Shown in pieces: positions 3,923-41,598 of a DNA stretch of 64,000 nucleotides (positions are counted from its first letter, which is position 1; every line of letters starts with the position of its first letter). This stretch comes from Rhodothermales bacterium. GTDB taxonomy: Bacteria; Bacteroidota; Rhodothermia; Rhodothermales; Bin80. The notes below the pieces were generated by a model. The model was given only the letters and a program-made list of their open reading frames with translations, made no database searches and was not told the origin of the DNA. The translations under genes were made by a program, and so were the position numbers. The DNA is taken from the NCBI GenBank assembly GCA_965203305.1, contig OZ241874.1, positions 1,968,976-2,032,975 on the forward strand, given 5' to 3'.

Positions 3923-4572
3923 TTACGCTTCAACCAGAGTATCAGAGTGTTTGATCTGTGGATCAGTCTTATCATTCAGAGGCTTGGACTGCGCATTAAA
4001 ACGTCTGGTCAGATCCGCAAGAAGTTTAGCTTGCTCATCTTGATGTCTGGTCAGATCTTCAAGGTTCCCGGTCTGTTTGTCGCAGCGTTTGGTCAGATCC
4101 GCAAAGTGCTTGGTCTGTTCGTCGCAGCGTTTGGTCAGATCCGCAAAGTGCTTGGTCTGTTCGCCGCAGCGTCTGGTCAGATCCGCAAAGTGCTTGGTCT
4201 GTTCGCCGCAGCGTCTGGTCAGATCCGCAAAGTGCTTGGATTGCAATTCACATCTCTCGGTTTGTACATTAGACAAAACATCAATGCGCTTGCCGAGTTC
4301 GGTGAAGTTCTTGCTGGCTTGGAGAAGGCCCTGATTTTGCGATTCAATCACAGTGTCAATGCGCTTGCTGACCTCACGAAGGCTCTGATTAACTTACGAA
4401 AGCCCTGATTTTGCGATTCAATCACAGTGTCAATACGCTCGCTTACGGCATCAAATCGCTTGTTCACGGAAGCGTTCGTATGCCGAGATGCGATAATCAA
4501 AGTTACAATAATGCCCGAAAGGGTCACGATAGTACTTACTGAGGCTATAGTGATGGACTGTACTAGCTCCAT
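3923..4572 (-). pseudogene. Membrane-anchored protein with 14-aa tandem repeats, split by a 74-bp direct duplication
   Basis: ORFs 4348-4572 (N-terminal TM helix ITIASVSTIVTLSGIIVTLIIA) and 3923-4351 both contain IDTVIESQNQG. A 33-nt perfect repeat at 4328-4360 and 4402-4434 is spaced 74 nt (not a multiple of 3). Removing one copy joins the two frames. Confidence 0.6.
3986..4240. repeat. 42-bp tandem repeat (coding; 14-aa units ADLT(R/K)RC(G/D)EQTKHF)
   Basis: Four near-identical 42-bp units at 4070-4111, 4112-4153, 4154-4195 and 4196-4237. Degenerate units extend back to ~3986. Confidence 0.85.
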
Positions 4573-7442: not shown

Positions 7443-10400
7443 CTACTGTACATCCACCCATTCAGTGGACAGTATCTCCGCCTGCTCAAGTACTGTTTCG
7501 GCTGCTTTTTCCTGCTTGTCTGGCGGGTAGCCATATTTTCGCAGATTCCGCTTTATCAGAGCCCTGAGGTTTGCACGAACATCCTCACGAATCGTCCAGT
7601 CAATCCTGACATTTTCCTGCACGGTTCTGACAAGTTTTCGTGCAATGTCGCAGAGCTTGTCTTCCCCCATCTCCCGAACTGCACTGTCATTGGTTTCCAG
7701 TGCATCATAAAATGCCATCTCATCTTCGGACAGCCCCAGTGCTTCGCCGCGAGCGTTTGCCTCTCTCATCTCCCGTGCAAGCTCAATCAGTTCTTCAATG
7801 ATTTGTGCCGCTTCTACGGCACGATTCTGATACCGGCGGATGGTCTGTTCCAGCATTTCGGCAAAAGACCGACCCTGAACGACATTCTTTTTTCTGCGGG
7901 TTGCAATCTCCCCTTTCAGAAGTTTCCGTAGCAGCTCAACTGCAAGATTGGGCTTGTGCATATTCAGGACTTCCTTCAGAAAGTCTTCCGAGAGGATGGA
8001 CACATCCGGTTTTTTCAATCCCGCGGAGGTAAAAATATCTGTTACTCCTTCGGGCATTATGCTCCGAGAGACAATCTGACGCACCGCATGATCTATCTCC
8101 TCATCAGTCTTTCCTTCGGATGCTGCACGCTTTGACAGTGCCACTTGTACGGTCTGGAAAAATGCCACATCATCTCGTATTCGCTCAGCCTCCTCGTGTG
8201 GAACGGCCAAGGCAAACGCTTTCCTGAGCTGACGGACGACGGTTACATATCGCTCTTTGCCTTTTTCCTGTGCCAAAATATGTTCCATTGCAGCTGGCAA
8301 CAGGGCGAGTTGCTCTGACGAGGAGGCAACTTTCCAGTCAAATCCGTGAAACATATCACAGCAGATTTCATAGTTTTTGAGCAAAACCTGAACTGCCTTT
8401 TCCTTGTCCACCGTTGCATCACCTTGTCCACCGCTTTCTGTATAGTTTGCGAGTGCCTGCTTCAGTGCATAGGCTAGACCCAAATAGTCAACAATCAAAC
8501 CTCCTGGCTTCTCCTTGAATACACGATTGACTCTGGCAATAGCCTGCATCAATCCGTGGCCTCGCATTGGCTTGTCTACGTACATGGTGTGCAGGCTGGG
8601 GGCATCAAAGCCTGTCAGCCACATGTCACGCACCAGAACCATCCTGAGTGGATCTTCCGGGTCCCGAAATCGCTTTGAGAGCAGCTCTCTTCTGGATTTG
8701 TTTCGTATGTGTGGTTGCCATTTAATGGGGTCCGAAGCTGATCCGGTCATGACGATCTTTAGCTCACCTGAATTGTCATCATCGTTACACCAGTCTGGAC
8801 GAAGACGCTCCAGCTCTTTGTACAAATCAATACAGATACGCCGACTCATGCAGACCACCATTGCCTTTCCCTTCATTACCTCCAGTCGCCCTTCAAAATG
8901 GTTGACGATATCTTCCGCAATAATTGCTGTGCGCTTCTTTGCACCAACGATAGCCTCCAGTTGTGCCCACTTTGTTTTTACCTTTTCCCGGCGATTGGCT
9001 TCTTCAGCCTCCGTGACTTCCTCAAAATCGCTGTCAATGTTGGGTTTCTCGTCCTCGTTCAGCTTGAGCTTCACAAGGCGATTTTCATAATAAATCGGAA
9101 CGGTGGCACCATCATCAACGGATCTGCGGATATCATAAATGCTGATGTGATTCCCAAATACTGCGCGAGTATTGGCATCCGCATGCTCAATGGGTGTTCC
9201 GGTAAATCCAATGAATGAGGCATTGGGCAATGCGTCTCGCATATGCCGTGCATAGCCGTCAATAAAATCATACTGGCTGCGATGCGCCTCGTCGGCAATC
9301 ACCACGATATTGTGTCGGTCCGAGAGTAGCGGATGCTCTTCTCCTTTCTGATCAGGAAAGAACTTTTGAATTGTCGTGAATACAATGCCTCCTGATTTTA
9401 CGGAAAGTCTTTTTCGTAAATGTGCCCGGCTTCTCGCCCGAACAGGTGACTGACGGAGGAGATCGGAACACCGTGAAAATGTGGCAAACAGTTGATCATC
9501 CAGATCATTCCGGTCGGTCAGTACAACAATGGTCGGATTTTTCATTTCCGGTTCCCGTACGATACGACCTGCATAGAACGCCATCGTCAGGCTCTTGCCG
9601 GATCCCTGCGTATGCCAGACTACACCAATCCGGCGATCTCCTATATCTCCTCCATGCATCGTGTTCTCTCTGAGGGCTACTTCCCTCTGCATCTGTGTGG
9701 CACGCAGGGTTTCTTCAACAGCTACATCCACAGCATGATATTGGTGATATCCGGCCATCTTTTTGGACAGCACACCACTTCCGTCATCCTCAAACACAAT
9801 GAAGTCCCGGATTAATTTCAGAAGTCTTTCTGGCTTGAGAACACCCTCTGTCAATACCTCTAGTTGCAACTTATCCCGAGACTCCTCCTCCTCCTTCCCC
9901 GAAATCGTTCGCCATGGCTTGAACCACTCTGGTCCAGCAGTTAGCGTCCCGATACGCGCTTCTATTCCATCTGATATGATCAGAGCGGCGTTATAAGTAA
10001 AGATGGAAGGAATCTGCGACTTGTAGGTTTGCAGTTGCTGATAGGCGGACTGGACAGTCGTCCTCTCATTCGAAGGATTCTTCAGCTCCACAATGACCAG
10101 CGGCATCCCGTTGACAAACAGTACGATATCCAGCCTCCGTCTCCGTTTATTTTCTTCCACGGTAAATTGGCTGACGGCAAGCCAGTCGTTCTTGCTGTGA
10201 TCGTCAAAATCAATTAGCCGGACTTGGGCACCCCGGAAACGCTTGTCATATTCATCATAATACTCCGTCGGTACACCGTCTATGAGCATGCGGTGAAATG
10301 CATGGTTACGACTTTCCAGTGCAGAACCACCGGGGTGGTACACATCTATTTGTGCACTGATCAGAGCACTCATGGGAAGCCACGAGTTCAGCCTGTCAAG

Positions 10401-18210: not shown

Positions 18211-18554
18211 ATCCTTGCAACCTACATCTCGTAAAAATCAAACAAAAGAGCCTCTGGCAAAATTCCCGGTTGAGGAAGAGACATTAACCTGAGAATGCTT
18301 GCAGGCACATTAGGTCGGTTGGCGTGCAGAGATATTCCTATAAGAACCCCTCAAAATCATCTTACGCACAAGACCAAAGATGTTCATATCATCCACATCT
18401 TCTGTGCCAGTCCAGTGATTTCTGGATTTACGGAAGACACAAATTAAAAAAATCTGGGCGCATTTCAACGCGGCCCGCTATATGCGATTAGGCTGGTGTG
18501 TATCCAGAATCATTCCACTCTGAGAATCAATCATCTGCAAGAACCAAAGGTTTT

Positions 18555-18653
18555 GAGGCTCCTGCGAAAACATACTCTGGACCCGATCTAATGTGTCCGA
18601 AAGCACTCTCGGAGCGATATTTCTCCGTCATCTGGGAATTTTGCAAGAGGCTC
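18555..18653 (-). repeat. ~100-bp unit of the GAGCCTCTTGCAAAA-bounded repeat family
   Basis: Reverse strand reads GAGCCTCTTGCAAAATTCCCAGATGACGGAGAAATATCGCTCC...TTTTCGCAGGAGCCTC. The first ~45 nt match the units at 727 and 35200. Confidence 0.55.
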
Positions 18654-18905
18654 GTTTTGCCAAAATGACAAATCGAAACCGTCAAAGTCAGGAACAAAAT
18701 GTAATCCCTCTACTCGTTATTCAGAAGTGTGCACAAGAATACAAGCCCCAAAGGCTCGGCCTTGCTCAGGATCGCCGCCCTACGAAGAAGGCAGGAGCTA
18801 GGCTTACTGCTAAGGGGCAGATGTACTGTTCTATAATTTCCGAAACAAGAGGTTCCCGCCTTAATATTTTTCTGCCAAAAACACGGATATGTTGGCTTTT
18901 TACAT

Positions 18906-19043
18906 TTAAGATGTAATAACCCTGAATTCAATCCGAGCCAGTATCACCAGCAACGGCCCCCGTGTGGTCTGGACTGCTTCCTTCTGCTTTTCGTTCAGAC
19001 CATCAAGGATTTTCGCTGTATCGAATTTCTGCATCCCACTCAT
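18906..19043 (-). pseudogene. UvrD/PcrA/Rep-family helicase, N-terminal ~35-codon stub
   Basis: From the ATG at 19043: MSGMQKFDTAKILDGLNEKQKEAVQTTRGPLLVILA, the conserved N-terminus preceding Walker A in UvrD-like helicases. Similarity ends before GAGSGKT. Confidence 0.6.
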
Positions 19044-19052
19044 TTTCTTGAT

Positions 19053-20371
19053 GGAATTATCCCGTAAAATCCGCACAGGATGCAGGGAGAGAGTATTATC
19101 TCTCCAGTCCCATGTCTGTGTCCCGATCACTGTCCATACGATCTTGCCTGCGGCGTGCTTCCACCTCACGGATATGCGCAGCGCGTTCCGTCAAGTACTT
19201 GTGCAGGGACGGGATGGGGATCGTGTAGAAGCCATTTTTACGGTAGAGAACGCCTTGACTGACCACTTGTGCAAACACGGCTTCGCCCAATTTCTCCAAA
19301 AGCTCTTTTTTGGGGACATGTTCCTGCGCATTACGAAATATCTTCACCAAGCGGAGGATGTCATCGTTGTCGACCCCATACAGTCGGCCTTGATAGTATT
19401 CCATGCGTTCTTCCCGCCCTTTCTCCATGACGAGACGCAGCAACTCCGGGGTCATCACCCCATCGTTCGCGTAGACCAAGTGGGCGGCATTCCGTGCATA
19501 GGAATCTACATGCCTGGGCCACAAATACGTCTCTTGGGTGATCGCATTGATCCAGTCTGTGGTGTCCCCTTTTGCTTTCCCTGCCCTTTTGAGCCAGTTC
19601 TTGATCACCTGCCGTTCCTCCTCCTCTTCCAGTGGTTTCATATCAAAATGGCATTGAGCTGCCATCCTGGATATCCCCAGTGCTTTGAATGCGGCATGGG
19701 TCATCCCCAGTCCACCCGCCAGCAGGATCACGGGCTTCCCCAACTCTCCATTGTGAATCTCCGTCAGAAGATCGCTGACCTCGTCTTTGTACGGTCCATT
19801 GATATTTTTGCTTTCTCCCATACGCTGGGCCTCGTCCAGAATCAAGAGGAGCGGGTCCTTTATTTTCTGGATCAGGCTCTTGGGGGTGACCTTCGGAGTG
19901 GCTTTTTTTGTCGTCCGTGATAGCCCCCCTTCGAGGGATGCCCCAAAGTATTTCACTTTCCCGCCACCCCCGATGGTTTTTTCTGTGGCGACCTCTTTTT
20001 TCTTCAGCCCCAGGCATTCCGCCATCAAGTCCGGATCCCACAGGGCCGTGACAACAAGTTTTCGGACCTCCCACTTCTCTCTCTTTGCCTTCTTCCTGCA
20101 TTCGTCCAGCAGGGCCGTTTTGCCGATCCCCGGCGGCCCTTGCACAAGGAAGATGGTCCCTTCGTTATTTTCTTTGTCATCCACCAGCCTGTTCTCAAAG
20201 CTGTCCAGTATGGGGGTGCGCCCGTGGAAGTAGGGGGTGGCTCCACGGTCTGTGGATTTTCGAAGCGGATCCATGGTTCCTGTCGTGGTTGGTCAAAAAA
20301 GACTACCCTTCGGAGCAGGGTTTGTTCCCCTATTGCACCCCTTGCGGATTTTACGGGATAACTCCCAATAA
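19053..20371 (-). mobile_element. AAA+ ATPase cassette, copy 2
   Basis: TTATCCCGTAAAATCCGCA at 19057-19075 and CTTGCGGATTTTACGGGATAA at 20341-20361 (19-nt perfect IR). GATGG occurs on both sides (19050-19054, 20372-20376). Confidence 0.55.
19096..20274 (-). CDS. ORC/Cdc6-like AAA+ ATPase, cassette copy 2
   Basis: 392 aa. FLVQGPPGIGKTALL, LLLILDEAQRMG, VILLAGGLG, IPIPSL. C-terminus DTDMGLER. Confidence 0.85.
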   Translation of the reverse strand: MDPLRKSTDRGATPYFHGRTPILDSFENRLVDDKENNEGTIFLVQGPPGIGKTALLDECRKKAKREKWEVRKLVVTALWDPDLMAECLGLKKKEVATEKTIGGGGKVKYFGASLEGGLSRTTKKATPKVTPKSLIQKIKDPLLLILDEAQRMGESKNINGPYKDEVSDLLTEIHNGELGKPVILLAGGLGMTHAAFKALGISRMAAQCHFDMKPLEEEEERQVIKNWLKRAGKAKGDTTDWINAITQETYLWPRHVDSYARNAAHLVYANDGVMTPELLRLVMEKGREERMEYYQGRLYGVDNDDILRLVKIFRNAQEHVPKKELLEKLGEAVFAQVVSQGVLYRKNGFYTIPIPSLHKYLTERAAHIREVEARRRQDRMDSDRDTDMGLER

Positions 20372-20622
20372 GATGGTGGAGAGATACCATCAATGAAAAG
20401 ATATATCTGGCATGCAAAAATAGAGATTATTATTGGTTTTCCAGCTCCATCCACAGAATATGTCCATGCAGATCTTGCCTCGTATGCTTTTCCACCAAGT
20501 TCGCCAAACTTATCTAGCCATGTGGTCGTGACTTCTTCCCATGCAGGGGATTTGCATCCAGCAAAATAAACAGTGAGCGTTGCAGTGATCAGGATCAGTG
20601 CTTTTGAATAGACTCTATTCAT
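20293..20622 (-). CDS. Small lipoprotein whose 3' end now reads into cassette copy 2
   Basis: Start at 20622: MNRVYSKALILITATLTVYFAGC (lipobox). The last ~27 codons are encoded by the cassette end, including the IR (20341-20361) and leader. Confidence 0.45.
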   Translation of the reverse strand: MNRVYSKALILITATLTVYFAGCKSPAWEEVTTTWLDKFGELGGKAYEARSAWTYSVDGAGKPIIISIFACQIYLFIDGISPPSYWELSRKIRKGCNRGTNPAPKGSLF

Positions 20623-20638
20623 TTCAGGAGAGGAAGGA

Positions 20639-20939
20639 TGCCTATTCCAATCAATTGGGCCGGTGAATCCAATTTTATTGGGCCACCCGTTCGGCATGTT
20701 TGGGATAGTGTTCATGACTCGGCAGATTGGGGCTGTAATTCTTGTTCTCCTTTGATCTTTCGCATGGACTCTCCGGTTAACGGAATGCGGTGTGCATTGT
20801 TGACGAGGCGATCCAGAATGGCATCCGCCAATGTGGGATTTTCCATGGTTTCATGCCACTTGTTGACCGGATACTGACTGGTGACAATGGTAGAGCACCA
20901 TACCCCTGAGAAAAAAACCTCCATCAATGAGAATCGCAA
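20639..20939 (-). mobile_element. IS21-family right-end remnant (istB 3' fragment plus terminus)
   Basis: Translation ...[53 protein letters not shown] resembles the IstB C-terminus. The ~75 nt after the stop, ending TG at 20639, recur inverted at 37845-37922. Confidence 0.65.
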
Positions 20940-21375
20940 CCCTAGTCATTCAGAAAAATTTTGCACGCTAAAAGCCTCAAATGTTTAGATCACTCGGAAT
21001 TTCCCATGGGCACTAGTAAGAGCCTCTTGCAAAAGTAGCATTTTAGAACGTTCAACCCATTTCTGAGGCCCAGGCTTCCTTGATTCTTGCCAAGTCCGGT
21101 TTGCGTCGGATTCTTTGTGCAGAACCGAGAGGTCTTCTTCGCCTGTCAAGAGGAGATGTTGGATACAATCCAAAACGTGAGTTTTCCATGACATAGTTCA
21201 ACAATCGGACACAACTTCCAGAGAGAGTATATAATCCTCTGCATCCGTGTATGTCAAATGGCATGGGATCATATTCTTGCAAGATTTGATGATAATCCGC
21301 CACCCCAAAACGCTCAATTGTTGTGTTGTAACATGGTAATCCCCTTACTCCATATACCTCCCGATATTAGTATCA

Positions 21376-22191: not shown

Positions 22192-22763
22192 TAGAATCGC
22201 TCCATAATCCGTATGAAATTTTGCAGGAGTGCATGTCCGGATTCACTCAGAATTGATTCCGGGTGAAACTGTATCCCGAATGTCGGCTTTCTCCTGTGAC
22301 GCAGTGCCATGACCTCGCCTTCCAGTGATTTAGCCTGAACATCCAGATCGCTTCCATCAATGTCTGTTACAATCAGAGAGTGATACAGCCCTGCTTTCAG
22401 CGGATTGGGCAACCCTTCAAACAGATCAGATCCACAGTGCGCAATTGGGCTCGCCTGTCCATACTTGGGAAACAGTGCCCTCGTCACCCGACCGCCATAC
22501 GATTGCGCAATTGCCTGATGTCCTAGACATACACCGAGTATGGGAAGTTTTCCCGAAAAATGCGCAATCGCATTCATGCTGATCCCGGCTTGATCTGGCG
22601 TACCCGGCCCTGGAGAAATCACCAGTGCTTTGGGGGCTATTGCTTCAATATCATTCAGGGTCACATGTCCTGCATCCACCACCTTTGTACGCTGGGCAAG
22701 CTCCTCAAAGTATCTGCTAAGATTGAATACAAAACTGTCACGATTATTTAGTATCAGGATCAT
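22191..22763 (-). CDS. pabA: Aminodeoxychorismate/anthranilate synthase component II (glutamine amidotransferase)
   Basis: 190 aa. PILGVCLGHQAI and FGIQFHPES motifs. Confidence 0.8.
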   Translation of the reverse strand: MILILNNRDSFVFNLSRYFEELAQRTKVVDAGHVTLNDIEAIAPKALVISPGPGTPDQAGISMNAIAHFSGKLPILGVCLGHQAIAQSYGGRVTRALFPKYGQASPIAHCGSDLFEGLPNPLKAGLYHSLIVTDIDGSDLDVQAKSLEGEVMALRHRRKPTFGIQFHPESILSESGHALLQNFIRIMERF

Positions 22764-24118
22764 TCCGGGCTACTCGTGCCATCAAATATCTTCCGTGCCT
22801 TCAGTAGAGTTTCAGAATACTCTTCGTCTGGATCTGACAGGGATGTGATCCCGCTGCCAACATCCAGACGTATCTGATCACCGTCAAACTGGATCGTCCG
22901 AATCATGATGTTAAAATCTGCCGCACCATCGAATCCAAAATAGCCAAAGGATCCGCAAAAGGCACGACGGGGGGAATGTTCAAGTTGCTGGATAACCTCC
23001 ATGGCCCGGCTCTTTGGTGCACCTGTAACAGAACCCCCAGGAAATACCGCCGAAAAAAGATCAAACGCATCCTGTCCTTCTTTCAATTTTCCCTGAATGG
23101 AAGAAGTAAGCTGATGCAACCCCGCGTAGGATTCCAGGGTGCAGAGCTCCGGTACCTGCACCGAACAAACCCTGCATACTTTGGACAAGTCATTCCGAAG
23201 CAAATCAACCACCATGGTGTTTTCTGCACGATCTTTCTCTGAACCGAGAAGCCTTTCCCTCAATTGCCCGTCTTCATATAGATCATCGGATCGCTCAATC
23301 GTTCCTTTGATTGGTCTTGCTTCAGCCTCTCCCTCAGAACTCAAAGAAATCAGCCGCTCTGGTGAAGTACAGGCGATAGCCCTCTCCCCGAAAATACCAT
23401 AGGCAGAAAAGGGAGAGGGATTGCTGTTTCGAATCGCATAATAGATTTGTAATGGCCCTGAGCTGTCAGGGTCCGATGCTGTGAAGGTTTGCGCAAAATT
23501 TGCCTGATAAATATCACCTGCACGGATGAATTCAAGGATATCATTCACCGATTCCACATAAGCCGCTTTTGCAATCTCGTTATGCCAAGTTAGATTCAGC
23601 ACCGGCACATCAGGCTGAATCATTTCTTCTATGTTCTCCCTGATTGCGCGCATATGAGCCTCAGCCACATCCTTGCATGGCTCGTACGATCCGTTTTGAA
23701 GACCAGATGAAATGATCCACGTACGGCTTGCGTGATGATCAACGGCAATAATAGTATCATATAGCCTGAAGTGACAATGATCGCCTCCCTCCGCAGAATG
23801 GCGAGATATGGTATGCGCATCAGTTTCCGCGAATTCGTAGTCAAAAAAGCCGACCAGTCCGCCCTGGAACGACGGACCATCATTAATCCGCCCGGTTGCA
23901 TAACTCCCGAGAATCCGCCGCAAATCATCAAGGTTTGCCGTAGAGGGAATTGACTCTACTGGATCAATGCAAAGGTAAGAGTAGCGACCGAACCGCAGGT
24001 CATTGGATGAGCTGTCAAGCCAGATCATGCCTCGCCCCTGCGCATACAGATGAGCCAAAGATGGCAGGTCTATTGACGCAAGCTCTCGTGCCCACATATC
24101 ATTACAGATTCTGCACAA
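22760..24118 (-). CDS. pabB: Aminodeoxychorismate synthase component I
   Basis: 452 aa. Chorismate-binding motif FPGGSVTGAPKSRAMEVI. Operon with pabA and pabC. Confidence 0.75.
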   Translation of the reverse strand: MCRICNDMWARELASIDLPSLAHLYAQGRGMIWLDSSSNDLRFGRYSYLCIDPVESIPSTANLDDLRRILGSYATGRINDGPSFQGGLVGFFDYEFAETDAHTISRHSAEGGDHCHFRLYDTIIAVDHHASRTWIISSGLQNGSYEPCKDVAEAHMRAIRENIEEMIQPDVPVLNLTWHNEIAKAAYVESVNDILEFIRAGDIYQANFAQTFTASDPDSSGPLQIYYAIRNSNPSPFSAYGIFGERAIACTSPERLISLSSEGEAEARPIKGTIERSDDLYEDGQLRERLLGSEKDRAENTMVVDLLRNDLSKVCRVCSVQVPELCTLESYAGLHQLTSSIQGKLKEGQDAFDLFSAVFPGGSVTGAPKSRAMEVIQQLEHSPRRAFCGSFGYFGFDGAADFNIMIRTIQFDGDQIRLDVGSGITSLSDPDEEYSETLLKARKIFDGTSSPE

Positions 24119-24585
24119 GTGAGATCCAATCTACGCAGGATTGTCCACAGCTAATAAGCCCCGGTAATCCTTTGGGAATTCACATTGACCATAGAACGGG
24201 CAGCGGAGAATGCCTTCTGCAAACAGAGCCTCTTGCAGAAATACTTTGGTAAAGGACCATGCATACTTGCAAGCACTTTCAGGGGACCGAATCTCCGCCA
24301 ACTTGATATTTTTGCAGAAACCTCTACTGCTCATTACTGAAGTTACCCCCTGGTATATAAGCCCCTCAGGTGAGCGAACAGGAATTCCCTGCCCTGCATA
24401 TCCGAGAATATCGTCTGGCATTGATGAATCTGTTTTTCGGTTAGTTTTCGACAGTCAAACACAGGAATCTGTGATAACATGGACAGAACAACATCAGACC
24501 TCCCCATTTGCTGTCGGCTGCCAATATCCCAAAACAGGATAATCTTCAATGTTGAATCAGACCAGAGAATGCGAACAATGAGAGA

Positions 24586-25918
24586 TTACCTCTCCATTCC
24601 CATATCTGTGTTTTGCCCCTTGTCCGGGTCGTCTTTGCTCTGTGAGATTCCTGTTCTGGTTTGATTTTTCCCTCCTCTTTTTCGGGAAATGGGCTGTCTG
24701 CTTTATGATTCTCTGGTTCCTTTGGGGGAGACTCTTTTCCTGTTTCTTCCCCAGAAACCTGTTTCAAATGGGACTGTTCCCGGGCTGTGAGCTCCTTCTC
24801 CGCCAGCCATTCCCGTATCATGTAGTCGTGGAGAGAGGGGATCGGAATGATGTATCTCCGCCCCTTCTTGTGCAGAACGCCCTTTGACAGGGCCCGATCA
24901 AATCCACCTTCCCCAATCGCCCGCTTGATCTCCTCATCTGTCAGTCCAATCTCCAGCGAAACATGCTGAAACAATTCCGCCAGTCCATTGAATTCATTAT
25001 ACGTCAAGTCTTCCGTCCGGCCACGGTAGTATTCCCTGCGGTTTACCCGCCCCTGCTCCATGACGATACGCAACCCCTCCGCGGTCATCTCCCCCTCGGA
25101 TTTCTTTAAGTACTCCAGGGCAGGGTCCAGGTAGGACGCGATGTGGTGCCCCCACCCGTGTGTCTCTGCTGTGATGGCATTCATCCAAGCAGTGATGTCC
25201 CCCTTCGCCTTCCCCTCCTCTGTGAGCCAGTCCTTGATCACCCCTCGTTCCTCCGCTCTGGAGAGTGCCTCAAGATTGAAATAGCAGTTGCTCTTGAACC
25301 GGGATATGCCCAGCACTCCCTCAAATACAGACCGGGTATTCCCTAGTCCACCAACCAGTAATACCAAAGGCCTGTCCATCTTCCCATTGTAGATATAGTC
25401 TAGAAGGGAGGTTGCCAATTCTTGTTTTCCCGCAGGGATGAGGGTCGGACTTCCAAATCGCTGTGCCTCATCAAGAATCAGCAGGAGCGGGGCATCTTTG
25501 CTCTGAAGAGCCTTGATAGGGGTGGATGCATCTCTGTCCAGATCAAGCGATATCCCTAGAGAGGCAATATCTATTTCGACCTCTGCGGAGATTCTTTTTA
25601 ATCGACGTTTGGCTTTCCCCAGACATTCCCACAGAATATCTGTGTCCCAGAGTGCCCCTGGTCTGATCTCTGCGGTGCCCCAGCCTTTCTCCTCCGCCCA
25701 TTTTCTGCACTCCGCCAGGAATGCGGTTTTGCCCACACCTGGGGGCCCTAGACCAGGAAACAGGAACCCTTCTTTCCAGGGCTGGACCGGAATAATAACC
25801 GCAGAAAGTACTTCTTCTCGTTTTCCCGCCCGTGGAAGTATCTTGTCTCCCCGCGGTCGTCAATAATTTCTCCTTCTGGAAGTGGCTTGTCCTGATCGGG
25901 AAGTTTTGTGCGGAACAT
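24586..25918 (-). pseudogene. ORC/Cdc6-like AAA+ ATPase, cassette copy 3, decayed
   Basis: From the ATG at 25918: MFRTKLPDQDKPLPEGEIIDDRGETRYFHGRE...GSCFLV, then in-frame TAG (25748-25750) where paralogs have Q of FLVQGPPG. The frame then shifts at the following C-run; the ORF-track frame 24546-25736 continues GPPGVGKTAFL. A second frameshift near 24640-24650: the conserved end TDMGMER-TAA (stop 24586-24588) is in another frame. Confidence 0.75.
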
Positions 25919-26094
25919 AGCGGAGACAGGAGATGGCTGGCAGAACTTTTATGCTTGGACACTCAGACACTGCTTCAGGTTCCCCCGGTTTTTGGGGCCA
26001 GGTTTGTGCAGGGCCGGGTTGGATGTCTACCCAACTGCTGAACCCAGAGAAGGGAAACGGAGCAGAAACACGCAGGGAGTCTGCCCGTTCCCAG

Positions 26095-26120
26095 CTTGCG
26101 GATTTTGCTGGATAACTCCC
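26095..26120. repeat. Right (upstream) IR arm of cassette copy 3; the left arm is missing
   Basis: CTTGCGGATTTTGCTGGATAACTCCC. No matching TTATCCAGC arm lies 3' of the copy-3 stop. Confidence 0.7.
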
Positions 26121-26142
26121 AAAATGTCTGTACCTCTCCACC

Positions 26143-27147
26143 CTATGATACTCCTTCACTCATTTCAATCATACGCTCAATGGGCTTGAGTGCTCGTCTG
26201 CGGACGGATTCTTCCATGCGAATTTCTGGCAATTCATGCTGCATGCAGAGGTAAAGCTTTTCGAGCGTATTCAGGCGCATATGTGGACACTGGCTGCAGT
26301 TGCATCCGCTTTCAGGAGGAGCAGGAATAAACTGCTTGTGCGGAGAGTCTTTCCGCATCTGATGCAGAATTCCTTCCTCGGTTGCAATGATGAACGAGTC
26401 TCCTTCATCTTCCCGTGCAAACCGGCGGATTCCGCTCGTGGAGCCGACATAATCAGCATGCCGAAGGACAGCTTCTTCACATTCCGGGTGCGCCAGCACC
26501 CTGGCATCGGGAAACTCCACTTTCAGGGAAAGCAGCTTCCGCTCGCTAAATGTTTCATGTACGATGCAGACTCCGTCCCATATGATCAGGTCGCGTCCTG
26601 TCTTGCGCTCAAGCCAGCGGCCCAGATTGCGGTCCGGTGCAAAAATGACGGGCTGGGATTCCGGGATCATCCGTAACAGATGCTCCGCATTCGTGGAAGT
26701 GCAGATAAGATCACTTCTCGCCTTTACAGCAGCGGAGCAGTTGATATATGACATCACTAGATGATCTGGATGCCTGTCACAGAAAGCCTGAAATTCATCC
26801 GCAGGGCATGTGTCTGCCAGAGAGCATCCCGCATTCAGATCTGGAAGGACAACTTTCTTGTCAGGACACAGAATTTTTGCCGTTTCTGCCATAAAATGAA
26901 CCCCGGAAAAAACAATCATGTCGGCCGAAGTTGCCGCTGCCTGCCGGGAAAGCCCCAGTGAGTCACCGATAAAATCGGCAGCATCCTGGATGGCAGGCTC
27001 CTGGTAATAGTGTGCAAGCAGAATGGCATTCTTTTCCTTTTTGAGAAGCTCTATTTCCTCATAGAGGTCCAGCGCTGGATCAACAGGCTCGTCAATAAAT
27101 CCAGCCTGATCCAGTCTGCTGCCAGGAAGATCAATGGGCACGGGCAT
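26143..27147 (-). CDS. nadA: Quinolinate synthase
   Basis: 334 aa. [30 protein letters not shown] and conserved Cys ligands. Typical NadA length. Confidence 0.9.
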
Positions 27148-33733: not shown

Positions 33734-34124
33734 CCCTGGTTCCGCTCTGCAGCAGACTTTCTCTCCTGTCGTATTTCCGTGTAGTACTTCTCTGATGGAA
33801 TGGCAACTCATCTGCATGTACATTAGCGGACGGAGTGAGCTTCATCCGATTCACACAGTGTGCCCCGTCTGAATGGAGCTTTCCGAAGATGAGTTTTCAG
33901 TCAGACAGTACAGATATACCCACGAAGGCAGTGAATCTCCATAAGTCTATTGACTTTGGCTTCATGGATGTCTTGACTTCGACGGTTAATTTGCGCACAG
34001 AGGCATTGGAGGGCGATTTTCACGAAAACTGAACACTACAATTCAGAGATCGAAAAACCCTGTCCGTAACGCACGGAAATACAAGTTTCTACCGAAATGT
34101 CAAACCAAAACCGTCGAAGTCACC

Positions 34125-35199: not shown

Positions 35200-35297
35200 G
35201 AGCCTCTTGCGAAAATCCCGGATGATAGAGAAATACTGCTCTGAGATTGCTTAAAGGCGCATCGGGGCAGGTGTACAGATGCTTTTGCAAGAGCCTC
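35200..35297 (+). repeat. ~100-bp unit of the GAGCCTCTTGCAAAA-bounded repeat family
   Basis: GAGCCTCTTGCGAAAATCCCGGATGATAGAGAAATACTGCTC...CTTTTGCAAGAGCCTC. The ends can pair at 13 of 16 positions. Confidence 0.55.
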
Positions 35298-35333
35298 AGC
35301 ATACGTTAAGAGACATGAATCCAAGAGTACGCC

Positions 35334-35809
35334 TCATTGTCCAAGCACTGCCCTCAGACTGTCCCCACACCTCATCATCCTAATAGTTTCTCTACACTCA
35401 TGGAATCCGATCCTGTTACGCCTCAGTTTCTTGAGCTGGTGTTTGTTTCGTTTGCCGCAGACTACAACAGGCTTGAACTGGAATCCTTGTGCTTCGCTTG
35501 AAAAGATGAACTTCTCAGCAACAGAAGCACCTGCCTGAAATTGCTGAATGACCTTACTTGCGTCCAACCTCTACGCTTCAGTTCAATGACCACCCAGCCG
35601 CTCATATCCTTACTTTTTCCTCTAGTAACCAGAAGGTAGTCACAGCGCGTCATGTCTGTTGCCAATGGCGAGCCGGACCTGTCAAAATCAACAACAATAC
35701 GATCAGATACGCCAGCCATCACCACTTTACATCCGTCCTTGTTCAGCCCGCCACTTACCAGACATGCCTCATCAAACCTTTGGCTGATGTCATCCAATGA
35801 TTCCATCAC
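35334..35809 (-). pseudogene. Small PD-(D/E)xK-like protein, frameshifted
   Basis: ORF 35462-35809 carries CDYLLV...VVIELKRRG (D...ExK pattern). The sequence continues in another frame as ORF 35334-35567 (DASKVIQQFQAGA...). The GTG start overlaps the ATPase stop (GTGA). Confidence 0.45.
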
Positions 35810-37371
35810 GAGTTGTTCTCAATGAGGCTTGTGATGTCAGCTGAATCGTTGTGCAGAGCATATGCAACATCATCAAAGCCAGAGGAATACAGGTTGGAAT
35901 CATCAAGGTACACCTCTTTTACAACTGTACCCTCAAGGTACTTCTCCGGTTCAAACAGCCATACACCTACTTGACCAGTATCCAGGGCTATCTCGCCGCT
36001 ACCGTTGTACCGAACTTTGGGATGTGATCGACGCACTATGTTGGCTAATTCTTCCAGCAACCATTCGCTGTGCGTGGTGACGATTACCCGAACACCGATC
36101 TTGATGAGTGCGGCAATTTCACGTATGAATTTGACCTGCATTGCCGGATGCAGATGAGATTCTGGTTCTTCCATAATCAAGACATTGCCTGGCTTAATCA
36201 CATGACGGAGATACAATACCACGGGTGCGAGCTCCGAAACCATGGAAGACGCGTTTGCCAGCGTGAGATCTTCTTCCCAGCCGCGTGGCCGATACGTGAA
36301 ATTCGGATAGTTGGCTGGTCGCGTGATGCGAATCGCTCCGTCAAGAATATTATCTTCAATGCTTCTGCCAAGATCCTGTTTGCCCTTCCGAATTGGCTCA
36401 AATCCAACTAACTGTTCGAGGAAATCTGCCAGCACCCCAGAAAGCATTGGCGTGTTAGCGGCAGGGATAATGCCCGCAGCCGATGCGCTCGCAATCAAAG
36501 CGTTGACCACCACACTGTGCGCATGCATGACACCGGTCCGGTCTGCGGGCAGGTAATAGGCGGGCGAGTGCAGGGTGCCAAACAGCGATGGTATCAGTAC
36601 ATTGCCAAGCGATGACAAAAGATCTTGGATCGCGAACAGGCGATATTCTATATCCTGATCTTTCTGGAAGAGATATAGCATGCGTTCAAGCCACTTTTCT
36701 TTCCTTCTGTCCCCGGCTCTGGGGTCAATCGGAATTGGTATCTTCTCCGGGATCATAGTTTCAAAAGCGGGGATCTCACTGAGCGAAACCGTGTGATTAA
36801 CAAAATATGGAGGATCCCCGACAGATTGCCGCATCACGAGACACGACTCCCTCACCGCCTAGTTCCTGCGAACCAGTCTGTCAATTTCGTCAACCCCGAA
36901 GCATCTGACGATTTCATGGGATAATGTATCCATCTGTTGACTAAATCCAGAGCGAAGTCTGTCAGCGAATGGAGGGGGCAGGACAATGCTGCCTTGATTT
37001 GGCGGTGAAGAATTGATCTCAATAGCATTTATTGAGCCTGACAGGGTGTTAATTTTCTCTTCGGAGATATCGCCGAACCCCCGCTCCAGTCGGGACCGCC
37101 ATCCTCCAAAAGAATGTCTCTTACCAGAGTATGTACCGTCGTTGAAAAAACGATGTAACGCATAGATCAGGATCGCCAGATAGGACTTCCCCGTATTGCT
37201 GGCCCCCACGAACACCATGAGTGGCCTCAGATCAACTTCTGCCTTGGCAATTGGTCCGAAATCCGTCACCTCAAGTTTCAGGTCTTTCTTTTCAGTCCGC
37301 TCATCAGTCTTTTTGTATTGGGCTGTCGCAGGCATGACATTAAGGTTGTTTCGGACCGTCGTTCGTGACAT
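35806..37371 (-). pseudogene. ABC-type (AAA_15/AAA_21-like) ATPase interrupted by one in-frame TAG
   Basis: ORF 36859-37371 has Walker A VFVGASNTGKSYL. ORF 35806-36855 has YYLPADRTG, Walker B VLIMEEPESHLHP and TTHS. The two ORFs share one frame, separated only by TAG at 36859-36861. Confidence 0.7.
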
Positions 37372-37744: not shown

Positions 37745-37922
37745 CCTGGATGTCTTGTCAGCAATGAACACAGAATCCAATTAACCGGAGAGTCCATGCG
37801 CAAGGTCAAAGGAGAACAAGAATTACAGACCCAAGTGTCCGAATCATGAAGACCATTGAAAACATACCGAACAGATGGCCAAATAAGATTGGATTCACCG
37901 GCCCAATTGATTGAAATAGGCA
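37745..37922 (+). mobile_element. IS21-family right-end remnant (degenerate istB 3' fragment plus terminus)
   Basis: ...[22 protein letters not shown]-stop, then ~75 nt matching the reverse complement of 20639-20715 and ending ...AATAGGCA at 37922. Confidence 0.6.
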
Positions 37923-38237
37923 CTTCCGAAACCATCCCGATTCAGGGAGTATCTGACTTGTGTCTGGCAGCATCTCGGGGTTACAGACTGAGAAGTCAGG
38001 AGTAAGGCTGGAACACTGTAAACCGCAAGGATGGGGGCCATTTCCACTCACCGTAAAGATTTGGAAATTATCCAGCAAAATCCGCATGAAGGCAGGGAGA
38101 GAGTGTTATCTCTCTATCCCCGTATCTGCGTCCCGATCACTGTCGGAAGGGTCTCTGCCCTGTGGAGGTTCCTGACCAGGATTGCCTTTTCCCTCCCCTT
38201 TTTCTGGGGAGGGACTGTCTGGAGTATGGTTTTCCGG

Positions 38238-39440
38238 CTACTCCTCGGGATCCGCCTCGGGTAACTGTCTCGGCTCCCCCTGATCCTTGGACTCCGGATG
38301 TTGCTCCGAAATCTCTTTCGGGGGAAAATTCCTTACAATGAAATTTCGCAAAGACGGGATCGGAACGGAATAACATCGTAGTTTCTTATTAAGGTAAAAG
38401 ACTCCCTTGCGTACCGCCCGCCAGAAGATTTCTTCCCCTTTCCCCATCCCATACTCTCTGTCCAGCTGTTCTATAACATCTTCCTGCTCTACAATGCCCT
38501 CCTTAGAACTTGCTGCCAGGATTCTGGCAAGGCTTCGGCACTCTTTTGCAGTGAAGTCACTCAAACGACCTTCATAGTATTCTCTGCGGTTTTTCCTCCC
38601 CTGTTCCAGGACAGACAGAAGCTCTCCCCTGGTCATCTCCCCATCGTTTTCCTTGAGATGGGCCGCAGCTGGGACCGTGTATGCGATAATGTGCTGGGGC
38701 CACCGGTAGGTCTCTTTGGCAATCGCATCCACCCAATCCGTCGTGTCTCCCTTCGCCTTCCCCTCTTCTTTGAGCCACTCTCTGATCACCGTCCACTCTT
38801 CCTCTTCTTCCAGTGGATCCAGGTTCGTGATGGATCCTAAGGAGGCACGATAGATTCCCAGACTGTTCAATGCCCTGTCTGTCGTGCCCAATCCGCCAGC
38901 TAACAGGATGACAGGCTTCCCCAGCCCGCTGTTATGAATCCGCTTCAGGAGATCTCGGACATCGTCTTTGTATCCTCCGGTTATCCTGCTGTCTTCGCCC
39001 AAATGCTGGGCCTCGTCAAGAATAAGCAGAAGGGGGGTGTCACCTATCTTGAGTATGTCTTGTGGGGTGCGGGGGTGGTGATCAACCGTGATTTTTGCTT
39101 TGCCCTTCGCAACCAGAAATTTCGTTATCCCTGCTTCACCTTCCCCGCCTGTAACCCTGATTTCGGGGCCGATCTCAAGTGTTTTCCGCAACTTGTCTGG
39201 ATCCCACAGATCTCTCGGGTCAATCTCTGCCACTTCCCACTCCTGCTCCTCTGCTATATCCCAGCATTTTGCCAGCAGAGCGGTTTTCCCCACGCCAGGA
39301 GGCCCCTGTACCAAAAATATAGTTCCGCCTTTGGATTCGCTGAACTCCTCAAGTGCCTCCCGGAACTTCGAGAGGATCGTTTCGCGTCCGCGAAAGTGTT
39401 TAGCTGCTCCTCTGTCTCGAAAGCCTTTAATCTTGCTCAT
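38238..39440 (-). CDS. ORC/Cdc6-like AAA+ ATPase, cassette copy 4 (C-terminal tail cut by in-frame TAG)
   Basis: 400 aa. FLVQGPPGVGKTALL, LLLILDEAQHLG. After TAG (38238-38240), 43 more in-frame codons reach the family-typical ...DADTGIER-TAA at 38106-38108. Confidence 0.8.
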   Translation of the reverse strand: MSKIKGFRDRGAAKHFRGRETILSKFREALEEFSESKGGTIFLVQGPPGVGKTALLAKCWDIAEEQEWEVAEIDPRDLWDPDKLRKTLEIGPEIRVTGGEGEAGITKFLVAKGKAKITVDHHPRTPQDILKIGDTPLLLILDEAQHLGEDSRITGGYKDDVRDLLKRIHNSGLGKPVILLAGGLGTTDRALNSLGIYRASLGSITNLDPLEEEEEWTVIREWLKEEGKAKGDTTDWVDAIAKETYRWPQHIIAYTVPAAAHLKENDGEMTRGELLSVLEQGRKNRREYYEGRLSDFTAKECRSLARILAASSKEGIVEQEDVIEQLDREYGMGKGEEIFWRAVRKGVFYLNKKLRCYSVPIPSLRNFIVRNFPPKEISEQHPESKDQGEPRQLPEADPEE

Positions 39441-39607
39441 CGTTTCTTCTGGAAGTGGTTTGTCCTAGTCGGGAAGTTTTGTACAGAACATGGTGAGGAC
39501 AGGATAGCGTTGGCAGAACCTTTGGGCTTGGACACCCAGACACTGCTTCAGGTTCCCTCTATTAGGAAATTATCCAGCAAAATCTGCATGAAGGCAGGGA
39601 GAGAGTA

Positions 39608-40939
39608 TTATCTCTCTATCCCCGTGTCTGCGTCCAGATCACTGTCGGAAGGTTCTCTGCCCTGTGGAGATTCCTGACCAGGATTGCCTTTCCCCTCCCC
39701 TTTTTCAGGGGAGGGACTGTCTGGAGTATGGTTTTCCGGCTCCTTCTCGGGATCCGCCTCGGGTAACTGTCTCGGCTCCCCCTGATCCTTGGACTCCGGT
39801 TGTTGCTCCTGAATCTCTTTCGGAAGATAATTTTCTAACAGCCAGTCCCGCATGGACGGGATCGGGACAGAGTAGTTCCCTTCCTCATCGTAGTAAAACA
39901 CCCCCTTCTTCACGGACAGAAAAAATAGCTCCTTTGCTTTCTCCTCCCCATACTCTCTTGTGAGATGCGCAAGAATCTCTGTCTTTGTTAGCCTCCCGTC
40001 TTTGGGAACACCTCCTATGATCTGAGCAAAACTGGTTCTTTCTTCAGAAACAAATTCCGACATCCGCCCTACATAGTATTCTCTGCGGTGTTTACGCCCC
40101 TGTTCCAAGACAGACAGCAACCCCTCCTCTGTCATCTCCCCGCCGTCTTCTCTGAGATGGGCTGCGGCTGGCACCGTGTATGCGATAATGTGCTGGGGCC
40201 ACCTGTAAGTCTCTCTGGCAATCGCATCCACCCAATCCGTCGTGTCTCCCTTCGCCTCCCCCTCTTCTCTGAGCCACTCTCTGATCACCGTCCGCTCCTC
40301 CTCTTCTTCCAGTGGATCCAAGTTCGTGATGGATCCGAAGGAAGAGCGAGAGACCCCCAGACTGTTCAATGCTCTGTCTGTCGTGCCCAATCCACCAGCT
40401 AACAGGATGACAGGCTTCCCCAGCCCGCTGTTATGAATCCGCTTCAGGAGATCTCGGACATCGTCTTTGTACCCTCCCGTTATCCTGCTGTCTTCGCCCA
40501 AATGCTGGGCCTCGTCAAGAATCAACAGAAGGGGGGTGTCGCCTATCTTGAGTATGTCTTGTGGGGTGCGGGGGTGGTGATCAACCGTGATTTTTGCCTT
40601 GCCCTTCGCAACCAAAAATTTCGTTATCCCTGCTTCCCCTTCCCCGCCTGTAACCCTGATTTCGGGGCCGATCTCAAGTGTTTTCCGCAACTTGTCTGGA
40701 TCCCACAGATCTCTCGGGTCAATCTCTGCCACTTCCCACTCCTGCTCCTCTGCTATATCCCAGCATTTTGCCAGCAGAGCGGTTTTCCCCACGCCAGGAG
40801 GCCCCTGTACCAAAAATATAGTTCCGCCTTTGGATTCGCTGAACTCCCCAAGTGCCTCCCGGAACTTCGAGAGGATCGCTTCGCGTCCGCGAAAGTGTTT
40901 CGCCGCTCCTCTGTCTCGAAAGCCTTTAATCTTGCTCAT
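39608..40939 (-). CDS. ORC/Cdc6-like AAA+ ATPase, cassette copy 5
   Basis: Start taken at MSKIKGFRDRG (40939) by analogy with copy 4. First ~205 aa are ~99% identical to copy 4. Long acidic/Pro-rich tail ending DADTGIER. Confidence 0.8.
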   Translation of the reverse strand: MSKIKGFRDRGAAKHFRGREAILSKFREALGEFSESKGGTIFLVQGPPGVGKTALLAKCWDIAEEQEWEVAEIDPRDLWDPDKLRKTLEIGPEIRVTGGEGEAGITKFLVAKGKAKITVDHHPRTPQDILKIGDTPLLLILDEAQHLGEDSRITGGYKDDVRDLLKRIHNSGLGKPVILLAGGLGTTDRALNSLGVSRSSFGSITNLDPLEEEEERTVIREWLREEGEAKGDTTDWVDAIARETYRWPQHIIAYTVPAAAHLREDGGEMTEEGLLSVLEQGRKHRREYYVGRMSEFVSEERTSFAQIIGGVPKDGRLTKTEILAHLTREYGEEKAKELFFLSVKKGVFYYDEEGNYSVPIPSMRDWLLENYLPKEIQEQQPESKDQGEPRQLPEADPEKEPENHTPDSPSPEKGEGKGNPGQESPQGREPSDSDLDADTGIER

Positions 40940-41598
40940 CGTTTCTTCCAGAAGTGGTTTGTCCTGGTCGGGAAGTTTGTACGGAACATGGTGAGGACAG
41001 AAGAGCACTGGCAGAAATCTTAGGGTTGGACACCCAGACACTGCTTCAGGTTCCCCCTATCAGGAAATTATCCAGCAAAATCCGCATGAAGGCAGGGAGG
41101 GAGTGTTATCCCTCATTGTTCGCCTTCCTTGTCCTAATTCAACATTGCGGATTATCCTGTCCCCTCTCCTGATGTATATGAATCCTCTGCGAAAGGAATT
41201 GGACCGGAGACTGTTACGCGAAGTGTTTGATTCATGGGAGGATTGCAGAAATTGCGCGGAGGTATGGTACAAGGAACCGCTTGTACATGCGGGAAAAGAA
41301 GGTTGGGATAAAGGACTTCTATCCTAATCTGAACGTTTCATGTCAGGGGTTGGAAGATACCTGTTCCGGGCTTGCGAATTTTGCTGGATAAGTCCCAAAG
41401 ATTTCTGGCAACTGACTGACTCCTTGACTCAGTTCTCGGAACAGTCTGATCCATTTTCCTCTGCAATTTGCGGGGAGATCGTCCTTCTCTGCTCCTGTTA
41501 CTGACTCTCTGTGTAACATGCGCATCATTGACGCATGTTTTCGGAGTGACGGGGAAAGGGCATGGATCACATGCTGATCCATGAAAGCTGCTCCCCAG

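Follow-up and report, generated by a model that had tools for sequence, protein, structure and literature searches.

A 46-nt sequence shared by two stop-codon hairpins of ATPase gene cassettes in a Rhodothermales bacterium looks like repeat decay rather than the scar of a chromosomal exchange

Introduction

Template switching at quasi-palindromes is an established mechanism and, like palindrome-associated ectopic repair, has been described in E. coli and yeast (PMC7202029, PMC8794818, PMC7999016). It is anchored by a short hairpin, starts copying at the stem, leaves a short inverted tract, tends to make imperfect palindromes more perfect and needs no reciprocal product, and in each of these respects it resembles what may have happened at the two loci described below. 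Classical events of this type stay within one locus and involve a few bases, whereas here 46 nt are common to two loci separated by 16.5 kb, and such an event is one that we infer.

Integron cassettes and small deleted transposons are the other systems that invite comparison. The attC site has the architecture R''-L''-loop-L'-R', with extrahelical bases and a conserved GTTRRRY core. Like the units studied here, attC cassettes are single, promoter-poor genes accompanied by an imperfect palindrome, form tandem arrays and vary in number between strains. Unlike integrons, the present loci yielded no IntI integrase, attI site or Pc promoter; the stem measures 6-7 bp and its loop contains the stop codon, the units have inverted-repeat arms of 30-45 nt, and one protein family is encoded throughout. 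MITE-like deleted inverted-repeat elements resemble one of our loci, a stub in which two inverted arms surround ~50 nt as a gene-less miniature of the full cassette. In contrast to MITEs, no transposase is present in the full-length units, target-site duplications are lacking and a single copy of the stub is known. As to the encoded protein, its structural model, an AAA+ domain followed by an all-helical C-terminal region, matches the Orc1/Cdc6 and PF01637 (SSO1545) AAA+ families (TM ~0.52), which are also expanded as paralogues in some genomes; the cassette protein shares 11-15% identity with these proteins and is assigned by Pfam to AAA_16 only.

The cassettes were found in a 64,000-nucleotide stretch (hereafter the window) of a 3.83-Mb contig; the similarity of nadA and pabB places the organism in the Rhodothermales. 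Its initial annotation had noted that the stop-codon hairpins at 24.5 kb and 41.1 kb carry hybrid ends, and had proposed that these are the reciprocal products of an exchange inside the palindromic hairpin, an old chromosomal rearrangement of the intervening 16.5 kb being thought more likely than a discrete element. We report here that the sequence shared by the two loci looks like fairly ordinary repeat decay and not like the scar of an old chromosomal exchange. Taken alone, the finding is small repeat archaeology; it would mark the stop-codon hairpin as the place where, time and again, paralogous ATPase cassettes lose, acquire or swap their ends without rearrangement of the chromosome. The wider oddity is that a Rhodothermales lineage carries dozens of single-gene cassettes bounded by inverted repeats, whose ATPases are predicted to adopt an Orc1/Cdc6 fold.

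Results

Five minus-strand paralogues in the window encode ATPases of ~390-477 aa that match Pfam AAA_16 and, weakly, NACHT/STAND families. These are copy 1 (2401-3573; AAA_16 and NACHT), copy 2 (19096-20274; AAA_16), copy 3 (24546-25962; AAA_16/STAND-like), copy 4 (38238-39440; AAA_16) and copy 5 (39608-41041; AAA_16). The AAA_16 ATPase is the sole gene of each cassette and no transposase accompanies it, and the family numbers dozens of paralogues both in this genome and in a conspecific genome of 3.67 Mb. NCBIfam and PADLOC assigned no family to the protein. Along its entire length the AlphaFold model of copy 1 (pLDDT 78) matched archaeal Orc1/Cdc6 and SSO1545, the Sulfolobus "archaeal ATPase", with TM ~0.52, the structures 1w5s/1w5t, 2qby and 2fna giving TM ~0.5 with E values of 1e-7 to 1e-8. 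The GTDB species-representative genomes do not include the species of the window; among them, the best relatives of the ATPase are found in Rhodothermales/Bacteroidota MAGs (33-48% identical), and no inverted-repeat (IR) arms were detected around these genes. Many of the related MAGs presumably come from sponges or corals, as their isolate names suggest.

The window contains nine matches to a 19-nt arm motif, TTATCCAGYAAAATCCGCA, where chance would predict 0.02. Five of the matches are L-type arms (plus strand, 3' side of the genes; 2360, 19057, 38068, 39570 and 41068) and four are R-type arms (minus strand, 5' side of the genes; 3633, 20343, 26097 and 41373), exactly as the initial annotation had listed them. 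Including their flanks the arms measure 30-45 nt (arm sequence, TTATCCAGCAAAATCCGCA), the cassette arms scored E values of 1e-9 to 1e-12 in a profile search, and the cassettes thus possess terminal inverted repeats of the kind that mark IS elements and MITEs. Target-site duplications are absent from copies 1 and 2, where the flanks extend the inverted repeat and form no direct repeats. The stop codon sits in the loop of a hairpin with a 6-7-bp stem, and this hairpin forms the centre of a longer imperfect palindrome of ~22 nt per arm. Rfam, tRNA, promoter and terminator scans returned nothing at the 24.5-kb or the 41.1-kb locus. Cassettes elsewhere in the species show several arrangements of these ends: in L083-A and L109 an arm follows directly after the hairpin; L083 is a complete head-to-head cassette pair, L083-B being truncated at its 3' end inside its own hairpin; and at L109 the gene is preceded by no more than the R-type end of what is presumed to be a leftward neighbour. 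In copy-5-like units, the arm directly upstream is a direct repeat of the unit's own 3' arm.

A repeat search of the 64-kb window revealed an inverted repeat of 56 nt with arms at 24534-24589 and 41105-41160 that are 82% identical/complementary (E 2.5e-8 in a self-BLAST of the window), which bears out the ~80% identity across the two hairpins reported in the initial annotation, whose quoted sequences are all present where it had placed them. The repeat comprises 10 nt of hairpin and 46 nt termed X (X' when reversed), of which 38 of 46 positions are identical in the two copies. At both loci X starts exactly at the stem base, and the alignment ends abruptly at 24534 and 41160. When 3 mismatches were allowed, a 24-nt pattern from X matched only the 24.5-kb and 41.1-kb loci in the window (0 of 100 shuffles gave a match), and a third copy was not found within the 64 kb. 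The two layouts, X'-hairpin-gene and IR-hairpin-X, are therefore real and formally complementary as the annotation had it, with homology switching at the hairpin in both; the loci are specifically related, and their relatedness is anchored at the palindromic stop-codon hairpin. Both junctions also exist in a sister strain (ENA ERZ25068685, ~97% DNA identity), at 12568-12623 of L079 and at 9779-9834 of L078, and the 24.5-kb junction recurs in L001, an independent low-coverage assembly (99.96% over 14 kb).

At the 24.5-kb locus, the copy-3 hairpin (24580-24595; GAGAG-ATTAC-CTCTC) belongs to a short-loop subtype (GGAGAGG-TAAT-CTCTC) shared with cassettes L083-A and L109. X occupies 24534-24579 on the minus strand (X' on the plus strand) and is identical in the sister strain; read in gene sense 3' of the hairpin, it consists of a 30-nt spacer followed by TTGAAGATTATCCTGT. 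It holds the position and orientation of the arm that directly follows the hairpin in L083-A and L109. The copy-3 ATPase gene (24546-25962, minus strand) is frameshifted into ORFs at 25543-25962 and 24546-25736, and is intact in the sister strain, where it encodes 455 aa. Its 3' end reads through the hairpin into X because it is out of the family frame. X was also considered, and rejected, as coding sequence and as a likeness of the gene's 3' coding end; the peptides LFAFSGLIQH and LFAFLVLIQH follow from the DNA identity, and the similarity to the coding end was not significant. The right (5') arm (26084-26130, minus strand) ends ~13 nt from the stop codon of nadA (26143-27147, minus strand), the end of a conserved nadA...gap-pgk block, and on the other side lies pabB (22760-24118, minus strand), the first gene of pabBAC and the ancestral neighbour of nadA. 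No canonical arm (TTATCCAGYAAAATCCGCA with at most 5 mismatches) is present between 22995 and 26097, including the region left of the copy-3 hairpin. The original statement that copy 3 has no IR arm there consequently holds for canonical arms, but towards its outer end X is similar to a decayed arm lying in left-arm orientation.

The 41.1-kb locus begins with two tandem 1502-nt units on the minus strand (38059-41062; copy 4 at 38059-39560 and copy 5 at 39561-41062), each made up of an L arm, a hairpin, an ATPase gene and a 115-nt upstream region, and 88% identical to each other. After them stands a third L-hairpin module alone (41063-41114), 96% identical to that of copy 4. In this gene-less stub the orphan L arm and its spacer (41059-41096, plus strand) lead to a hairpin (41097-41114; GAGGGA-GTGTTA-TCCCTC, with TCTCTC on the right stem in the sister strain) of the same subtype as those of copies 4 and 5, followed by X (41115-41160, plus strand). 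The imperfect palindrome continues over 41161-41172 (plus strand), a segment absent from copy 3, in which TCCTGAT (41166-41172) pairs with ATCAGGA (41059-41065). A unique spacer without detectable relative (41173-41359) and an R-type arm with a match to the arm motif (41360-41407, minus strand) close the locus. In the sister strain an IS element (DDE_Tnp_1) is inserted at 41168-41179, 8 nt beyond X. The sister strain has the array order A-B-A (one unit, the copy-4 unit being absent) versus A-B-A-B-A in the window, and the outer A copies are 96% identical as against 88% for whole units. We also considered the 212 nt after X (41161-41372) as a remnant of an ATPase gene and rejected it: the tblastn matches were weak and the family HMM score was equalled or beaten by 13 of 400 shuffles.

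The two loci thus differ in hairpin subtype, and since each retains its own, the specific homology between them begins at the stem base. Neither hairpin is chimeric, which speaks against an exchange inside it. The geometry of such an exchange is also restrictive. A single crossover between two hairpins (H) of one circular chromosome amounts to an inversion or to excision/integration. Undoing an inversion of 24.59-41.10 kb gives X'-H-L' and gene3-H-X, hybrids again, so that inversion offers no way back to two non-hybrid parental sites; undoing an integration gives X'-H-X and a 16.5-kb circle with L-H-gene3, nadA, gap and pgk. The parental pair L-H-gene and X'-H-X therefore needs an integrated 16.5-kb circle, with nadA inside and pabB outside, which contradicts the ancestral adjacency of these two genes described next.

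Gene order in relatives does not break at the 24.5-kb junction. Between 47.5 and 14.4 kb of the window the sister strain has a collinear sequence, except for IS insertions and cassette differences. In locus L108, whose nadA and pabB products are 89% (aa) and 72% identical to those of the window, the order is nadA, a TnpB element, pabB, pabA, pabC, a nucleotidyltransferase toxin/antitoxin pair, SLFN/HATPase, a 426-aa gene and a LON-domain gene; order and orientation match the window from 27 to 6 kb, and the TnpB element takes the position of copy 3. L081 and L107 read nadA, (glyoxalase), 426-aa gene, LON and lactamase B, so that the order from nadA to the 426-aa gene is kept in all three loci, and in L105 nadA is followed by a restriction/toxin island similar to the one in the window. 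The direct view of nadA next to pabB comes from one relative, L108. Together with L081 and L107, it indicates that the DNA flanking the copy-3 hairpin was already adjacent before the cassette arrived. With nadA and pabB as ancestral neighbours, copy 3 and its X' entered here as a local insertion, and no chromosomal breakpoint lies at the copy-3 hairpin, which argues against the old rearrangement of 16.5 kb put forward in the initial annotation, at least on the 24.5-kb side. The nadA-pabB spacer is evidently an insertion hot spot. At copy 2 the difference between the strains is no clean gain or loss of a cassette; the sister strain has 529 unrelated bp in that region and is hence uninformative as an "empty site".

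A search for the supposed parental site found no intact X'-H-X in the sister strain, in ~130 kb of other, non-overlapping conspecific DNA or in JGI metagenomes. A copy-3 orthologue with a normal left arm was not found either, the sister strain having the same junctions as the window; this comparison covers a small search space, the ~130 kb holding 10 cassettes of perhaps 40 or more. The suspicion that X might be a common dispersed repeat unrelated to the cassette ends received no support: across ~190 kb from the same species X matched none of the repeats or IS ends, and it matched nothing in 76 Rhodothermales loci (1.5 Mb). The X pattern did have 19 exact matches in JGI metagenomes, which have unrelated flanks and were set aside as chance.

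The stub sequence L-H-X is an imperfect palindrome of ~115 nt centred on the hairpin. Folding of 41055-41175 as a single long imperfect palindrome gave z-scores of -3.7 and -4.0. When X alone was shuffled (46 nt), z was -2.5 and 5 of 300 shuffles were as good; with 15 nt added (61 nt), z was -3.3 and 1 of 300 was as good. As only X was shuffled, the fold is not attributable to the hairpin. Placing the copy-3 X into the stub context gave z +0.7. Read as its reverse complement, 41130-41175 lines up with the L arm in register, as ATCAGGA, 7 nt, CAG, 3 nt and AATCCGCA, and 3 of 1000 shuffles scored as high; X6, compared with the arms that abut their hairpins, was equalled by 0-2 of 1000 shuffles. 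These p-values for resemblance to an arm (~0.001-0.01) are uncorrected and come from several alignments tried. The copy-3 X alone has no significant likeness to an arm, and an nhmmer profile of 13 arms detected neither X in the window (E 4.7 for a 10-nt piece), so that the derivation of X from an arm draws mainly on the 41.1-kb copy. That copy could have gained its complementarity to the neighbouring L arm secondarily, by palindrome correction. In the sister strain the outermost stem of the palindrome pairs at only 5 of 7 positions. Among eight other cassettes examined no further X-type end was seen, and a subfamily with such ends is accordingly not demonstrated.

Discussion

With modest confidence, we favour the reading that X is a decayed variant of the cassette 3' end, that copy 3 is a whole cassette and that the 41.1-kb stub is a gene-less fold-back. 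X would then consist of a spacer lengthened by ~17 nt and a degenerate inverted-repeat arm, and would not be foreign DNA. If X is the cassette's own variant 3' terminus, copy 3 is complete, running from the R arm through gene and hairpin to a variant L arm, and probably entered the ancestral spacer between nadA and pabB as one piece. The stub could be a mini-cassette or a fold-back of ~115 nt, with the order arm, hairpin and inverted variant arm, just upstream of copy 5, and its left half directly repeats the L-hairpin of copy 5 itself. If such L-hairpin repeats recombine unequally, this would set the number of 1.5-kb units, one in the sister strain and two in the window; this difference in number and the 96% identity of the outer A copies fit such a process.

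The two copies of X may be linked by descent, or by short non-reciprocal copying primed at the palindromic hairpin, for which a template switch, ectopic gene conversion and a hairpin-to-hairpin deletion are candidate events. That X starts at the stem end, and that each locus has its own hairpin subtype, is consistent with priming or recombination at the stem end and not with a crossover inside the hairpin. No exchange of chromosome arms would be involved, and either locus may have been the donor.

A deletion between the hairpins of a head-to-head pair, a leftward copy-5-type and a rightward copy-3-type cassette, could also have produced the stub, its L-hairpin coming from one cassette and its hairpin-X from the other, X then being the native 3' flank of the copy-3 lineage. 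This explanation is a close variant of the one just given. The species does contain head-to-head arrangements (the complete pair L083 and the presumed neighbour at L109), L083-B is broken inside its hairpin, and the copy-3 X stands where a 3' arm is expected. We nonetheless regard it as unlikely, given that the stub hairpin is entirely of the copy-4/5 subtype, which would require a crossover at the extreme edge of the stem, that the palindromic complementarity to L exceeds the part held in common with copy 3, and that the ATPase HMM recovered no remnant of a lost gene in 41161-41372.

The hairpin could instead be an attC-like site of site-specific recombination, in which case the 1.5-kb units would move as circles, L-H-X would be an empty attachment site and the hybrid ends would have been made by a recombinase acting on non-identical sites. 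Tandem units of gene, hairpin and arm with boundaries at the L-hairpin module and a strain-variable copy number would suit such a system, as would the upstream direct repeat of the 3' arm in copy-5-like units and the dozens of family copies per genome. Against it, the cassettes examined and their neighbouring genes include no recombinase (window arrays; loci L078, L079, L083, L085 and L109), homologous recombination between the 52-nt repeats is an equally good explanation of the variation, the strains do not differ at copy 2 by a clean gain or loss, and stop-codon hairpins are not general among distant homologues of the cassette gene, all of which makes this explanation rather improbable. A stronger form of it is very doubtful: that hairpin and arm are the recombination site of an undescribed gene-cassette system, whose units, each with the gene of an Orc1/Cdc6-fold ATPase, leave the chromosome as circles and enter it at hairpins, L-H-X being an empty or hybrid site and the copy-3 end resulting from recombination of non-identical sites. 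Were the hairpin a genuine site of recombination, we would be dealing with a new cassette system, which nothing in the present evidence makes necessary.

The genome contains many IS elements and small dispersed repeats, and the sister-strain IS lies only 8 nt from the end of X, so X might be part of some unrelated small repeat, mobile or dispersed (an IS end or MITE), that inserts beside palindromes and reached both hairpins independently. The searches of ~190 kb of conspecific DNA and 1.5 Mb of Rhodothermales loci speak against this origin, the 19 metagenome matches being due to chance, and the complementarity of X to the adjacent L arm likewise leaves it with little probability. Finally, a single exchange inside the hairpin between L-H-gene and X'-H-X, with an old rearrangement of 16.5 kb, accounts for the switch of homology at both hairpins and for the formal complementarity of X'-H-gene and L-H-X, but is highly improbable, since inversion yields hybrids again, the only fitting circle (with nadA, gap and pgk) would hold nadA apart from pabB, its neighbour in L108, the order from nadA to the 426-aa gene is kept in L081, L107 and L108, each hairpin is wholly of its own subtype, and no X'-H-X occurs in the DNA searched.

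Two smaller observations concern the flanks of X. Under the preferred reading, in which X is a decayed cassette end, the 212 nt between X and the R arm of the 41.1-kb locus have no explanation. Left of X' at the 24.5-kb locus (24500-24534) there is a possible further vestigial arm, which 5-12 of 1000 shuffles scored as high and which we note as a lead only.

Stop-codon hairpins as apparent breakpoints

The stop-codon hairpins of the AAA_16 ATPase cassettes appear to be recurrent breakpoints. At all cassette 3' ends the hairpin loop holds the stop codon (e.g. 2395-2425, 19085-19115 and 38095-38125), and the hairpin sits at the centre of an imperfect palindrome whose arms are each about 22 nt long (z -3.0 for copy 4). 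The C-terminal peptide ...D-M-G-x-E-R*, which is preceded by a highly variable linker, is kept even among homologues just 40% identical, and among the distant homologues only some have a stop-codon hairpin. The paralogue P0023, from another conspecific locus (L083 11395-11440), is broken off inside its stop-codon hairpin. An IS256-type transposase gene adjoins this truncated paralogue.

Comparison of stem pairs at the gene-less stub (41097-41114) revealed a stepwise compensatory change, from GAGAGA/TCTCTC in copy 4 through GAGGGA/TCTCTC in the sister-strain stub (L078 about 9825-9845) to GAGGGA/TCCCTC in the window stub. This series points to selection on pairing or else to correction templated by the palindrome, though no gene terminates at the stub.

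Copy 3 (24546-25962) carries a frameshift both in the window strain and in an independent assembly, and is an intact ORF of 455 aa in the sister strain (L079 11233-12600). In both strains its 3' end is off the family frame and runs through the hairpin into X, the 46-nt sequence abutting the hairpin here and at the stub. Directly outside X', the minus strand at 24500-24534 reads TTTTGGGATATTGGCAGCCGACAGCAA, which bears a weak likeness to the inverted-repeat arm (a score reached by 5-12 of 1000 shuffles, uncorrected). Such an arm-like stretch would stand back to back with X. The 415 nt between the X' side of copy 3 and pabB contain a 96-aa ORF belonging to no family, and may be another decayed cassette remnant.

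Copy-5-like units have in every case an arm immediately upstream that is directed away from the gene (41042-41062 / 39541-39560 in the window, and L083 9940-9990 and L109 9904-9950 in conspecific loci). As this upstream arm is a direct rather than an inverted repeat of the unit's own 3' arm, these units are bounded differently from copies 1 and 2.

Insertions and strain differences

The region directly downstream of nadA (24119-26142) is an insertion hot spot among relatives: it is occupied by an ATPase cassette in the window, by a TnpB (IS605-family) element in one more distant relative (L108 8249-10000) and by a restriction/toxin-antitoxin island in another (L105 11229 onward). Copy 2 with about 1 kb of flanks (18946-21221), which include an IstB fragment, is missing from the sister strain, where 529 unrelated bp were found at this position (L079 15903-16431). 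An AAA_15/AAA_21 ATPase (35806-37371) is split in the window into ORFs of 349 aa and 170 aa and is intact in the sister strain (521 aa); its top PADLOC matches were PD-T4-4_A, alongside AriA/GajA-like ones.

The ATPase family and its predicted fold

The AAA_16 ATPase family, represented in the window by genes at 2401-3573, 19096-20274, 24546-25962 and 38238-41041, is strongly expanded, with dozens of paralogues in each of two conspecific genomes (proteins P0001-P0120). Rhodothermales/Bacteroidota MAGs contain homologues of 33-48% identity in several copies, often in tandem, and isolate names suggest a sponge or coral source for many of these MAGs.

The AlphaFold model of the copy 1 protein (2401-3573, minus strand; pLDDT 78) matched, along its whole length, the folds of archaeal Orc1/Cdc6 and of SSO1545 (TM about 0.52). 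Together with the DnaA-box-like TTATCCA present in the cassette arms, this modelled likeness hints that the cassette ATPase is a candidate DNA-binding AAA+ protein recognising its own arms.

Other repeats in the window

Beside copies 2 and 4 lies a pair of repeats in inverted orientation (20632-20816 and 37746-37927, 83% identical). In the independent assembly (L001) a 70-aa gene annotated as PF01695 IstB_IS21 overlaps the former, and the latter is without annotation of its own; the ORFs overlapping the two repeats gave no Pfam match. The sister strain has an intact DDE_Tnp_1 IS whose ends are matched by the stretch 33941-34122. Dispersed copies of a repeat about 75-100 nt long (725-776, 18244-18318, 18583-18657 and 35200-35298; 75-83% identity, both orientations) possibly represent a MITE or REP-like element. 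Finally, a fourfold repeat of 42-nt period and a tandem pair of 74 nt were observed between copy 1 and a 444-aa gene (3982-4233, 4324-4467).
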